NCBI GenBank assembly: GCA_951406725.2
Contig: OX597825.1
Location: forward strand, 41,354,001-41,418,000
DNA from: Octopus vulgaris
Lineage: Eukaryota
Reading direction: 5' to 3'
Length of the DNA: 64,000 nt
Part shown: piece by piece, positions 14,036-58,129 of the stretch
How positions within the stretch are numbered: position 1 is the first letter of the stretch
Layout: each line of letters begins with the position of its first letter
The notes under the pieces: model-generated
Told to the model about the DNA's origin: nothing
Seen by the model: the letters and a program-made list of their open reading frames with translations, nothing else
The model's database searches: none
Program-made: the position numbers and the translations under genes

Positions 14036-14329
14036 TGACTAGTTTATATTGTTTATATTTCTAGGGTAATACTTTAAAGTACTATTTTAAAGTCAGGAAA
14101 TGTGTCAAGGCCAACAAGAGGAGGTGCTTCCTAGGGCTAAATAGCAGTAGTATTCTTCCTTTTCATGGGACTGTCACATTAAGTTGACAACATACCACCA
14201 CTTTATCATGTTACTACTGTATAAATCTCACTGAGAGATTAAGAAATGTATCATTTCATTTTCTAATTAGTCTAAACTACACCACAGAGAAAAGAGTCTG
14301 ATAATTGTTAATCTAGGTTATTTATCCTT

Positions 14330-51599: not shown

Positions 51600-52965
51600 G
51601 TAGTGGAATACTTGAATTTGTCCTTTAAGTATTTTCTAGGATGCTCCAGCAAGCTGTATCTTTCACTCCACTTAAAGGAAGAAATATTTATTCATCTAGA
51701 CCAATACATAGATAACCTTTACAAATTTCCACTGAGGCATAATAGAAGTGCCAGACCAAATATTACCAAATCAGAGAAGTTTATACTTAAACATCTCCAA
51801 ACTGATAACACAACAGTCACCAAACTAGCAGACAAAGTGGTTGCCATTGTCATAATGGAAGCCAAATATTACCAGGATTTAGCTGAGAATAAATCGAAGG
51901 ATACAGCATTTTACAGTGTGATATAGATCCCTGCATCATGAAAAAGCTCAATAGCTTGGTTTCAGAATACATCTCCCTTACTATGAGTGAAAGAGATAGC
52001 ATTTTACCAATTTTGAACCTAAAGTAAGCAAATTTTATGGCATGCCAAAAATATATATAAGTGATGGTAATTAAAAATGACATCACTATCATCACTGATA
52101 TGTATTATAAAGACACAGATATTCAACAGTGCCTGAACTTTAACTCATGCCATCCAATACATACAAAATGGAATATCCAATAATGTCTAGCCAGAATAAT
52201 TTTTACCATTGTTGACAATGGAGATATTAGAGACAGATGTCTCACAGAATGTAGGATTTCTACTCAAACGAAATCACCTACTCCTACTTATTGAAAATGG
52301 TACAATGTGTGCTAAACAAATACCTACAGAACAACTTAGAGCAAACCAAGAAAGAGGAATGCAAAAACAAAACATCATACCATTTATAGTGACACAAAAC
52401 CCACATCACCAAAATAACTTTAACATCAACAAATTAAATTAGCCTATCATTGGTCAAAGTAACAAACTAAAACCTATAATTACTGATCAAATACTGATTC
52501 AAATTAAAAGACAACCAAAACATTTGAATCAATTATTAAAGAAGGCAAAATTTGACTCAAACAACAATGATAAAACATACATAGTATCCAAATGCACTGA
52601 CAATCAATATGGTACATGTGAGTTCAAGCATGCTAGTCAATATATCCATCCAAAAACCAGAAGAATATTTACAAAAGCAAATATGAACTGTAAAAGCAGA
52701 AAATTAATCTGCTGCATCAAACTCCTGAATTTTGAAGAGATATATATTGACCAGACAGGAAAGTGATTATCAGAACGCTCATGAGTACATCAACAGCAAA
52801 TTAGGGTCCCTGATGTTTGCCAGATTCTATTAAGCAGTCATTTAGGAATAGGTATCCAAAAATGTTTATAATATTCTCATTTTTCAAAATGTACAACTCA
52901 AGTGAAGATGAAAGAACAGTGAGTGAAATAAATTTTATAGAGAAATTCAAACCCATTTACATGGA
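51600..52965 (+). pseudogene. Degraded, internally deleted Penelope-like element (RT N-terminus, thumb and GIY-YIG)
   Basis: NITKSE...KLADKVVAIVIM, FYGMPKIY, IPFIVTQNP and NMNCKSRKLICCI...YIDQTG. Confidence 0.85.
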
Positions 52966-53044: not shown

Positions 53045-53350
53045 AGGCAGGAATACTAGCTCAATGGTTAGAACATTGAGCTCACAATCATGAAGTAGTG
53101 AGTTTGATTCCCAGACCAGGCTGTGTGTTGTGTTCTTGCAAGATACTTCATTTCATGTTGCTTCAGTTCATTCCGCTGTAGAAATGAGTTGTAACATCAA
53201 TGGTACCAAGCTGTATCAGCCTCTTTCTTTTCCTTGTTTAACATCAGAGGTGTAGAGAGAGGAGGCTGATATGCATGAGTGACTGCTGGTCTTCCATAAC
53301 CAATTTTGCCCCAGAGGGGAACTTTTTAGGTACAATCCCAAGGTTCTTAG
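53045..53350 (+). mobile_element. tRNA-derived SINE (degenerate)
   Basis: tagctcaatggttaga...gagtttgattcccagacc has A and B boxes. The head resembles family C. Confidence 0.65.
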
Positions 53351-53886
53351 TATCGAGTGATTTTCAACATTTTAATATCACTGAATCCTTTATAGAAGAT
53401 CTTAACTAAAATGTATTTGGGAATAAGCACTGTCAATGTCCATTATGTTGGCATGTTCACCAAGTCATACTGGATAAGCTGAATGTTGATTGGTTGAAAT
53501 GTTTTTTCAAATAAGATAATGTCAATGCTACTTGTGTCAGCAGAGCTAACCAGGCCATGATATCTAAGCCACACACTGATTGGTTAAAGTAATGTTTGTA
53601 AAATACGGCTTGCTGGAATCTATTGGAAAGCATTTAAAGGACAAATTCAAGCAACTCACAGCAGTTATCAGTTGTGAAACATAACTGTCAGTTATTGATT
53701 GCAGAGAGTATAAAAGTAGTTGTATGATCATAAAATGCAACATTATAAAAATGTGAAACATCGTCGTTTAACGTAAACTAAAACGTAAAAATCTGACTAT
53801 GTTGTAATTTCATTGATTTAATATATATTAATTAGAAAAAATGAATAGATATGACTTTTCTGATAATTTTCCCACATTAATAATTA

Positions 53887-53940
53887 GTTATAAGTTATTA
53901 GGGGTTTACAAAAGGTGTAAACCCCAAATAACTTATAAAC
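53887..53940. repeat. Near-perfect hairpin (23-bp stem, 5-nt loop)
   Basis: ttataagttattaggggtttaca-aaagg-tgtaaaccccaaataacttataa, with one mismatch. Confidence 0.9.
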
Positions 53941-54087
53941 ATTTAATTATTGAAGCTACTGTTTATAACTCACTCTAAGATTTATTATTGCTTGTTTACA
54001 CTTTTTCGATATCAGTGTCTTTACGATACTGGAAAAAGTATATGTATTTGTGAAGGGAACCTACTTCGCATCGACAACTGTGATTGT

Positions 54088-54132
54088 CACATGCCGATGA
54101 TGGGTCAATACCCAGAAACTCGAGTCCGTGTG
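54088..54132 (+). ncRNA. Minimal type I hammerhead ribozyme (U4 replaced by C)
   Basis: cacatg CCGATGA tgggt-caat-accca GAAA C-TCGA-G TC cgtgtg. All three stems pair, stem III is palindromic, and the cleavage triplet is GUC. Confidence 0.8.
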
Positions 54133-54564
54133 TATCATAAGTTGGAGACGGGAAGGATGGCTTCCCTTTGCAAATACTGATAGGGCACAGAAAGTGTGTC
54201 TATAGCCAGCTGGAGGAGGTGTCCTCCTGGGGCTACAAACTACAGTAGCATCCACCATTAGGGGTTAGCCATATTTAAATGGCAAATATACGTCACAATT
54301 TAATTATTAAAGTGGGAAAAGTCATTTCTATTCATTATTTTCAAATATATGATAGTGTACCAAGGACTTTCTATTTCTTATTCTACTACATATATCTAAA
54401 ATTTATATATACATACAAATACAATGGGAATACTACAAAAAATTCTATATACACACACTGTGGTCCCTGTGTGTATATATATGTGTGTGTGTGGGAGTCT
54501 GCGTGAATTTACTTCTATCTATTTATCTATTTATCAATCTATTTATCTATCAGTCTATAATCTT

Positions 54565-54613: not shown

Positions 54614-54856
54614 GAAGGTTTGGAGATGATGTACAGGTATTATATATTAGAAAAATTGAGGTAATCAGATCAGATGGTTCATATTTGTAGATATTTATTT
54701 ATATATTACATTTTTTACATATATATCATATCATTCGGATTAGCGCTTGCTCCCATTCTAGTGGGTTTTCAAATCAAATCAGTTGTGGGTAGTTTGAACC
54801 TTTTTATAGTTTCGTAGTAGTGGGTGAGGAGGAAGTGAGACAGAGAGAAAATATGT

Positions 54857-54938
<82 letters not shown>

Positions 54939-55152
54939 ATTTATATCTGAGAGTGAAGAAGTGTTATTTCCGTTGGTCTGCTGGACCCCCTGTGGTTTTA
55001 TAAGAACTTTGGCTGTCCATTTCAATGTCACTGAGTGTGTGTTGTGCATAGGTTGGCCTGGCAAATGTCATTTGGGGTCACACTTTCTATGATCATTCTG
55101 TGGAGGTGTGTGTGTGTGTGTGTGTGTCTCTGTGTGTCTGTGTGTGTTTTTT

Positions 55153-55208
<56 letters not shown>

Positions 55209-55840
55209 GAGAAGGGGAGAGAGACAAAAAGAGAAAAGGGAAAATAAAAATAATAATAATAAAAATAAAAAATTAAAAAATTAAAAAAATAAAATAAAAT
55301 AAAAACAAAAAATAAAAAATAAAATAAAAAAATATAAAGAATAAATAAAAATATAAAGAATAAAAAATAAAAAAATAAAAATAAAAATAAAAATAAAAAT
55401 AAGGGAGGAAGTGGAGAAGAAAAAATATTTTTGTGTGTTGATATTTATACCAACACATATATATACACACACACAGACTTATACATAAAATATTTGAAAA
55501 AACCTTTTTATCGGTTCAAAATGAACAACCAAATTATACCATCTTGAAAGTTGTATGTCATAGGAAAGTTAAAATTAAAGTGACAATTAAAGGGTAAAGA
55601 TGGAAGTGAATTATAAAGATAATAATATAATATGATACACACACACACACCTCCACAGAATGATCATAGAAAGTGTGACCCCAAATGACATTTGCCAGGC
55701 CAACCTATGCACAACACACACTCAGTGACATTGAAATGGACAGCCAAAGTTCTTATAAAACCACAGGGGGTCCAGCAGACCAACGGAAATAACACTTCTT
55801 CACTCTCAGATATAAATGCGCACACACACACACACACACA

Positions 55841-55909
<69 letters not shown>

Positions 55910-56115
55910 CACACATATTTTTCTCTCTGTCTCACTTCCTCCTCACCCACTACTACGAAACTATAAAAAGGTTCAAACTACCCACAACTGATTTGATTTG
56001 AAAACCCACTAGAATGGGAGCAAGCGCTAATCCGAATGATATGATATATATGTAAAAAATGTAATATATAAATAAATATCTACAAATATGAACCATCTGA
56101 TCTGATTACCTCAAT

Positions 56116-56129
<14 letters not shown>
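54611..56129. mobile_element. Young long inverted-repeat insert (arms ~54641-55119 and ~55637-56129, ~520-bp spacer)
   Basis: Arms are essentially identical apart from the (TG)n tract and its margins. (TA)n on both flanks and a ~30-nt left extension. Confidence 0.93.
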
Positions 56130-56727: not shown

Positions 56728-56765
56728 ATATGTTCTTAGCATTCTCGAAGATTCAGCTCGGCATT

Positions 56766-57780
56766 TTATTTATTGCTGATTGTATATGCGCCTGCACGCA
56801 GTATTTCCTTTAATTTGGGGTCCTTATGAAGTATTGGTAAATTCTGGGTGATGATGGTGAAGGCTTCTTTGTTTCTGGGGTTGCATGTGGATATGTAAGG
56901 CAGTATTTTTGGAGAAGGTGTGTTGTTGTGTTGAACTTTTCTCAAAGTTTCTATGTCTATTTCTGTTGCACGTCTGATCCCATCCTCTATGAGTTGAACT
57001 AGGTAGTGTCTGTCAATTAGGGTGTTTTTGAGTTCTTGTAGTCTAAAGTTCCTGGTATTTTGTTCTGACACTATTGTGCATATCCTTCTTGCAAGGTTGA
57101 AAGGGATGTTTGTTTTAGTGTGTCTTGGGTGGCATGAATCAAAAAGTAGGTATTGTTTGGTGTCTGTGGCTTTGTAAAATATGTCTGTTTCTATTTTTAG
57201 GTTAATTTTCTTAATCAGTATATCTAAGAATGGAAGCTCCTTTTGGTTGTACACCATTGTGAACTGTATATTTGGGTTTATGCTGTTCAATAGGTTTTTG
57301 AATTTTAGGAGTTTGTGTTTTCATTCCAGAGTATAAAACAGTCGTCCAAGAATCTTTTCCAATTCTCTTTTATGTATTGAGAAAGGGGTTTCCAAAGGTC
57401 GATAAAGATTCCTGGTATATAACTATTTCCAGGTAGCCCATTGTTAGGTTCGCAATGACTGGTGCTGCCCTTGTACCCATAGCAATTCCGGATTTTTGAC
57501 GGTAAAACGTATTGTCAAACACGAAGTGATTATTTTGTAGGATGAATTCAACCGATTTAGTAATGAATTTTTTACTGATTCTTTTTGGTATTTCTTCCGG
57601 AAATTGGTCCAGCCAGAACTGTATTGCCTCTAGTCCATAATTATGAGGTATACTGGTATATAAATTAACTACATCAAATGAAACCATGATTGTTTCTTCC
57701 TTGACTTTTTTGGGAAGGTGGTTTAACATATCCAAGTCATCTCTGATATGACTATCGATGTGTTTGAGGAAGGGTTTCAG
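56766..57780 (-). pseudogene. Penelope-like element reverse transcriptase (frameshifted, truncated before the endonuclease)
   Basis: SFDVVNLYTSIP, QKSGIAMGT, WKRFLDDCF (frame between the two ORFs), LPFLDI and FYKATDTKQYLLFDSCHP. Confidence 0.95.
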
Positions 57781-58129
57781 AGAGAGAGAGATAAATAGGT
57801 AGGTACTTAGATATGCATACATGTGCACATACATATCAACTTTTGGGCATCATGTATATACACTTTAAATGAGTACATGACACTACCAAACCTACAGAAA
57901 GCTTAAATATGTCTGTCATTCTCATGAGTCACGATGGTGACAATCTTCATCTCACTCTGATATATACTGTATTTTTGGCACAACAAATCTCTCAAGACAT
58001 TTTATCTCAGACAATTCCACAGATTCATGCCTTCTCATAGTGTATATGCATTTAGCAGGAAACACAAACAGTGATTTTAATTTCATGTTGTTTTAGATAC
58101 ACTAAATTTTTACCTGCACACACACATAT

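Follow-up and report, generated by a model that had tools for sequence, protein, structure and literature searches.

Does the compact hammerhead motif that closes a long hairpin in Octopus vulgaris DNA belong to a ribozyme-bearing RNA element, and is the C at position 4 of its core decay or a family-wide variant? The stretch analysed, hereafter the window, comprises 64,000 nt of contig OX597825.1 (assembly GCA_951406725.2, positions 41,354,001–41,418,000, forward strand). The reading we favour, with a probability of roughly 0.7, is that the hairpin forms the hammerhead arm of a non-LTR retrozyme, here a solo copy of a non-coding repeat 352 nt long, which a Penelope-like element likely mobilises. 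On this reading, the CCGAUGA core is a state that its subfamily inherited, and the ribozyme probably still cleaves.

A sequence check recovered the stems, the CCGATGA core, the palindrome and the GUC exactly where the original prediction had placed them. The type I hammerhead motif occupies 54088–54132 of the plus strand and consists of helix I (cacatg 54088–54093 / cgtgtg 54127–54132; 6 bp, one of them U-G), the core CCGATGA (54094–54100), helix II (tgggt 54101–54105 / accca 54110–54114; 54101–54114 with loop 2), GAAA (54115–54118), a 2-bp helix III with a palindromic loop (CTCGAG, 54119–54124) and GUC (54124–54126). By standard hammerhead numbering, the predicted self-cleavage site follows C17, at 54126/54127. 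By prediction, the self-complementary 8-mer ACUCGAGU (54118–54125, plus strand) lets two ribozyme copies share a helix III, with a self-duplex energy of −10.7 kcal/mol. Compared with the core C3 U4 G5 A6 N7 G8 A9 / G12 A13 A14 / A15.1-U16.1 / H17, the window copy agrees at every position except U4. A descriptor requiring at least 4 bp in stem I and at least 3 bp in stem II had a single match in the 64 kb, scanned on both strands, at 54088–54132, the motif first described as the best-formed hammerhead of the window.

Two bases of the motif are private to the window copy, both at CpG sites: T54092, where 31 of 36 close copies have C, and T54101, where 33 of 36 do. The U-G in helix I and the U-A pair closing helix II at 10.1-11.1, seen in the window copy only, are due to these private changes. 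Elsewhere 10.1-11.1 is C-A, C-U, U-U or A-U depending on the subfamily, with a C-A mismatch in the window's own, and the usual G10.1-C11.1 pair is absent from the family. Across 25 aligned copies, 10.1-11.1 was unpaired in 17, and the adjacent helix II pair was G-C in 18 and A-U in six.

Helix I extends into a rod (54044–54177, plus strand) that folding and covariation predict to be an arm of a circular monomer. Its pairing was as first described, with the inner stems tgat/atca and caact/agttg confirmed and an outer stem of 54044–54061 / 54159–54177, but it starts one base before the 54045 originally given. The interval 54040–54185 folded at −57.9 kcal/mol (z = −5.15), a value that none of 200 shuffles equalled or bettered. 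The element size of about 130 nt proposed earlier did not hold; judged by the limits of similarity between copies, the rod is one arm, in the middle of a 352-nt repeat.

That similarity starts at 53950–53955 and stops at 54295–54302. At tandem joints, 54299 is followed by two extra bases and then by 53950 again, giving a period of 352. The window carries a solo monomer of this retrozyme-like repeat at 53950–54299 (plus strand), the first few bases of which overlap a target duplication. We searched the genome of the window's own assembly (2.8 Gb, 227 contigs, coded G000). The query 54030–54280 gave 52 matches of 91–100% identity, the best 40 of 2,267 candidates being scored. Exact patterns gave 2,189 matches to the 3′ motif and 1,032 to the core, in partial or whole copies, both counts being lower bounds. 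Copies thus exceed two thousand, and pairing is kept across subfamilies. The phrase "small, highly base-paired ribozyme RNA element" is supported, with self-cleavage as a prediction, by the copy number, the kept pairing and compensating changes, but the unit is a 352-nt mobile one.

The copies occur as partial tandems, one nine-unit array and inverted pairs; the majority are solo or truncated, and long tandems are not typical. In the nine-unit array (G000:C2:14086522-14089376, period 352) the first eight units differ by 1–6 bases, and several dimers were also found; the hammerhead is present in consecutive tandem units. The longest ATG frames across the array encode 57 and 39 aa, and those of the window unit 29 aa (plus) and 65 aa (minus), in line with the statement that no ORF is attached. 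The repeat family is present in three further organisms. The window copy has eight differences from the majority of its closest copies and, having a single hammerhead, would be unable to release a monomer alone; for both reasons it is probably a dead-end, inert insertion. An old 5′-truncated copy of the same family, with a tail-like second piece, lies elsewhere in the window (14094–14263). Contigs of presumed RNA runs span the unit and its head-to-tail joint; since DNA-type runs show the same joint, these contigs say nothing on expression.

Conservation of the rod and hammerhead, as named above, was scored in 25 hand-picked, related copies across subfamilies. Pairing was kept in 88.2% of 1,292 cells, versus 35–49% in slid controls. 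Cells changed on both sides numbered 47, against 22.3 ± 4.8 in shuffles (0/500 reached it), although kinship among the 25 rows can by itself beat shuffles. Two of five covariation measures were weak: pairs with a change on both sides (15 vs 11.3; 30/500) and further pair types (44 vs 46.1; 464/500). RNAalifold did not recover the outer stem from the 25 rows. The rod had z ≤ −3 in 21 of the 25 copies, and circular folds of four natural monomers (five loci tried) gave z values of −4.7, −7.4, −2.0 and −3.7 with 63–68% of bases paired. Among subfamilies, a helix II pair changes from G-C to A-U and the palindrome of the helix III loop switches between UCGA, CCGG and UGCA, the latter two occurring in older subfamilies.

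These data bear on whether the unit is simply a satellite or foldback element, repeated at the DNA level, in which a hammerhead-like motif arose by chance. Rfam yielded no hammerhead match over the whole window (E ≤ 1), where it gave only microsatellite look-alikes of miRNA models, or within 53900–54400 (E ≤ 10). The minimum-energy fold of the apex differs from the hammerhead fold (−16.4 vs −10.9 kcal/mol), and inverted pairs and a tandem array exist, as such a repeat would have. Against this, in 22 of the 25 copies the plus strand gave a better fold than the complement, and a generic core pattern matched the genome 1,529 times with C at position 4 (C4) and 1,808 times with U (U4), while backward-read controls gave 28 and 32 matches. 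The copies also have fixed 3′ and ragged 5′ ends, which point to reverse transcription. End profile and covariation together already largely refute a DNA-level origin, which we consider highly improbable.

The copies were then tabulated by core position 4 (54095, plus strand in the window), where C replaces U. With helix II left free, 344 copies were C4 and 537 were U4, the latter having the complete canonical core. Neither of the alternatives offered for this change, decay or a family-wide variant, survives these counts. It is not decay, because the CpG gain is shared by 344 copies in one clade, and it is not family-wide, because 537 copies carry U4. An impression that C4 was family-wide had come from the 30 closest loci, a sample biased to the window copy, and was ruled out by the U4 pattern counts. 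With helix II fixed, the pattern matched 187 times for C4, 156 times for U4 and 10 times for G5A, the mirror change at the CpG; the 156 against 10 ruled out that the U4 copies are mere CpG decay of C4. In 27 loci chosen by the 3′ motif, 13 segments spanned the core, of which five were C4 and eight U4.

Mean divergence from their own majority was 3.9% for C4 (43 segments) and 8.7% for U4 (30 segments, helix II-fixed set). In a 72-row tree, all 51 C4 rows fell in one clade (100/99) within older U4 rows, with three single U4 rows inside. This had suggested that C4 took over the family, a view ruled out by younger U4 lineages in wider trees (57 rows, 19 close copies having been dropped at random; 37 chosen rows). 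With other helix II types included, two U4 lineages were nested in the C4 clade (100/100, two rows; 99/99, ten rows), the ten-row lineage having the shortest branches. All trees were midpoint-rooted and read without a clade test. The likely order is U4 to C4 to U4: C4 probably arose a single time among older U4 copies and spread, after which two younger lineages went back to U4. The G-C to A-U change in helix II is already present in C4 copies (L256, L257), which suggests that selection acted on the fold at a time when C4 was fixed. A whole subfamily inherited C4 and went on multiplying, so a ribozyme with this change is probably still functional. Within the family, the idea that C4 favours arrays found no support: judged by eye among the 100 matches listed per state, four loci of each state had same-strand neighbours at 350–357 nt.

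C4 recurs with otherwise intact cores in three lineages of this genome. The first is the family itself and the second a 360-nt sister family, 59–61% identical to the unit, with C4, a U-U mismatch and long arrays; one of its loci (G000:C1:31008800-31014200) holds two-armed arrays of many units. A third relative has C4 in one arm and U4 in the other. The remaining C4 lineage is an autonomous Penelope-like element, in which, by eye, 77 of 100 matches listed of 1,549 were C4, 23 U4 and none G5A. Median identity to an intact tandem unit, itself C4, was 99.5% for C4 (18 segments) and 91.6% for U4 (nine segments); here the youngest copies are C4 and older ones U4. A young two-ORF locus of this element (G000:C1:27840600-27850400) forms 4,271-nt tandems and has the C4 hammerhead core CCGAAGA with a GUA site. 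Other hammerhead-like cores were also seen: an abundant Penelope-like family with 781-aa open frames has a U3-A8 core variant (L061, L062, L070 and related loci), and in a small (TA)n-flanked element a CCGACGA core closes a 37-bp hairpin (L063:2010-2090).

The main rival to our reading accepts the same mobile element and takes the C4 hammerhead to be catalytically dead or irrelevant, the enzyme copying uncut multimers and the fold being structural or protein-binding. Cleavage was dispensable for Penelope-like insertion in vitro (PMC11167929), so the spread of C4 is no proof of catalysis; in the same account, the anole element gave no reads ending at the cut site. Naiad elements are reported to spread without hammerheads (10.1101/2021.04.23.441226). 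C4 is accompanied by the 10.1-11.1 mismatch, and the youngest lineages of the family are back to U4. Weighing against a dead ribozyme are the compensating changes in helix II and the helix III palindrome, the former also within the C4 lineage, the three C4 lineages with cores otherwise intact, and the tolerance of C4 by viroid-like RNAs. For the latter, PMC9608096 states, citing another study, that CUGA to CCGA did not affect cleavage in PLMVd, and PMC3088659 reports that U4C lowers in vitro activity in a viroid-like RNA yet leaves its infectivity. On balance, we judge a dead or irrelevant C4 hammerhead unlikely. A bolder proposal, which we offer with considerable doubt, makes position 4 an evolved tuning switch: the retrozyme, its 60%-identical 360-nt sister and the autonomous Penelope-like element would each have fixed C4 independently, against CpG decay. 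The advantage would be that circles or uncut templates last longer when the hammerhead is slower or works only as a dimer; alternatively, a factor from the host or encoded by the element would rescue cleavage.

The route of mobilisation was addressed through the ends of the copies. Mapping of 170 segment ends in 110 loci placed 90 at unit positions 340–352, about a dozen of these being inner tandem joints, and 56 at unit positions 30–49; these are two fixed 3′ sites, A and B, about 43 nt apart round the unit. Site A (unit ~349) coincides with two small hairpins (54274–54299, plus strand), the first of which is kept in the 360-nt sister family; by end mapping and folds, reverse transcription would start in the CACG loop there. 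The unit start (53950–53992, plus strand) reappears in many other copies as a 39–43-nt tail after the 3′ end, ending at site B, as the 56 ends above indicate. A second tally was restricted to true outer ends in 132 loci. The 78 single-strand insertions ended at site A in 48 cases, at site B in 24 and elsewhere in six, and the 54 inverted pairs were A+B in 35 cases, with one arm elsewhere in 16, and A+A, B+B or neither in one each. A (TA)n tract followed 46 of the single-strand insertions (n = 78); among the 54 inverted pairs, 37 had such a tract after one or both arms.

The window copy lies between the two copies of a 15-bp, AT-rich target duplication, 14/15 identical (53941–53955 and 54298–54312, plus strand). 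As a general feature, target duplications were not found, few being clear among 26 non-microsatellite loci. The retrozyme interrupts a high-copy, AT-rich host repeat (53812–53949 and 54313–54435), for which similarity to other copies spans about 53812–53889 and 54319–54435; it has inverted arms (53831–53860 vs 54316–54346) and a strong hairpin at about 53877–53952, and contigs of it without the retrozyme insertion exist. Beside the retrozyme, an inverted repeat at 54641–56129 (arms 54641–54851/55919–56129, 100% identical, and 54854–55119/55637–55902, 99%) may be a foldback insertion of very recent date or a product of the assembly.

Frangieh et al. (PMC11167929) show for a Penelope-like enzyme that both strands of AT-rich DNA are nicked and that an AC-rich stem-loop holds two internal start sites for cDNA, which bound a 30–40-bp tail. 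Partial tandems, inverted copies and tails of Penelope-like elements are described by Craig et al. (10.1101/2021.04.23.441226). The two 3′ ends, inverted truncated copies and AT-rich targets of the octopus family match this footprint of Penelope-type mobilisation. The autonomous element of the same genome, which has an RT and a GIY-YIG domain, likewise ends at two 3′ sites roughly 46 nt from each other and is flanked by (TA)n. It has a 4,271-nt period, a 430-aa ORF1 and a GIY-YIG domain above the Pfam cut-off; its RT scored 29.3 bits, just below the cut-off of 29.6. No autonomous partner sharing sequence with the unit was found in this element or in 40 GIY-YIG loci sampled of 6,136 candidates. 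A candidate partner locus (L065) was rejected, its sole shared-sequence match being an inserted copy of the retrozyme.

The unit itself is no autonomous Penelope-like element, having no RT/GIY-YIG ORF between pseudo-LTRs. Instead, an autonomous Penelope-like element not yet found could have left it behind, either as a solo pseudo-LTR or as a remnant of internal deletion. Pseudo-LTRs carry type I hammerheads with a palindromic helix III (PMC4209133), vertebrate retrozymes are reported to derive from them (bioRxiv 10.64898/2026.07.22.740005), and tail and inversions are alike. Broken Penelope-like RT/GIY-YIG ORF fragments of two families also lie in the window, at 51696–52954 (plus) and 56742–57795 (minus), and are about 61% identical to ORFs in L065 and 60–73% to those in L061/L057. 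However, the ORF fragment in the window lies about 1 kb from the unit, with another repeat and a tRNA-like SINE in between, and RT/EN fragments occurred in five of 80 family loci, none joined to the unit as a shared flank. In tandems, moreover, the end of the unit joins its own start, and the tail is the unit's own start and not an ORF leader. A solo pseudo-LTR or remnant is thus improbable, while ancient descent of the unit from a pseudo-LTR is possible. The SINE (53058–53345) is about 75–80% identical to copies in several loci.

The retrozyme reading can be set out as a mechanism, drawn from the model of PMC7229834, as given in its main text, and from the insertion footprint. A tandem source locus would be transcribed into multimers, in which two neighbouring hammerheads would pair through the ACUCGAGU palindrome, cut after GUC and free 352-nt monomers. 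A host ligase would close these into a branched circle, in which the rod may keep the single ribozyme misfolded. A Penelope-like RT/GIY-YIG enzyme would nick AT-rich DNA on both strands and copy the circle or an uncut multimer, cDNA starting at two internal sites about 43 nt apart, 170–215 nt downstream of the cut. The two starts would account for truncated copies, for copies longer than the unit and for inverted pairs with one arm per site, and position 4 would alternate between U and C without halting spread.

The element class is already known. Like the metazoan non-LTR retrozymes (mussel 350–390-bp repeats and axolotl Rtz_353 with HHR_Amex2; Cervera and de la Peña 2020, PMC7229834, as described in its main text), the octopus family has a non-coding unit of about 350 nt with less than 50% GC, one type I hammerhead per unit, tandems, a 2-bp helix III with a tetraloop and a highly paired predicted circle. 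Among the features by which non-LTR retrozymes are recognised, the family has a non-coding unit within 150–450 bp that holds one type I hammerhead, head-to-tail tandems and a highly paired predicted circle. Such retrozymes are further marked by the lack of LTRs, primer-binding sites and 4-bp duplications, any duplications being longer (the window copy has one of 15 bp), and by expression as linear and circular monomer RNAs. Where our family mostly has a mismatch at the foot of helix II, HHR_Amex2 carries U-U, and it cleaves, better as a dimer. Unlike the retrozymes in that account, the octopus family has C4 in 39% of copies, consists mostly of dispersed solo, truncated and inverted copies, is known here from sequence alone, and has fixed two-site 3′ ends, a feature without description in the sections of PMC7229834 covered here. 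Vertebrate non-LTR retrozymes (main text of bioRxiv 10.64898/2026.07.22.740005) share dispersed monomers, rarer multimers and co-occurring Penelope-like elements; they are linked to pseudo-LTRs by sequence, whereas the octopus unit is linked by its insertion footprint, with no sequence-sharing partner in the loci sampled. With pseudo-LTR hammerheads (PMC4209133) and anole Poseidon (PMC11167929), the main texts show in common a palindromic helix III, partial tandems, inverted truncated copies, a 30–40-bp tail and AT-rich targets. The octopus unit differs from these elements in having no RT/endonuclease ORF, helices I (6 bp) and II of canonical and not minimal size, and a self-closing unit. Through its inverted pairs with one arm per site, an animal retrozyme is connected to the Penelope mechanism of two starts and two strands.

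In the literature searched, we found no account of the octopus family or of lineage-wide C4 in genomic elements; cephalopod families may be listed in the supplements of PMC7229834, PMC4209133 and the 2026 preprint, and Lunse et al., on hammerhead variants associated with Penelope-like elements, may cover C4. The in vitro work left open whether hammerhead cleavage plays a part when retrozymes and Penelope-like elements spread, and natural U4/C4 pairs on a near-identical background and in a datable order offer a test. The same CUGA to CCGA change in an otherwise intact hammerhead is described for peach latent mosaic viroid and CtaHVd-LR1 (PMC3088659, PMC9608096). In those viroid-like RNAs U4C occurs as rare quasispecies variants, whereas here it is fixed in whole genomic lineages and accounts for 46% of the genome's core matches, so that descriptors restricted to CUGA would miss nearly half of such cores in the octopus genome.
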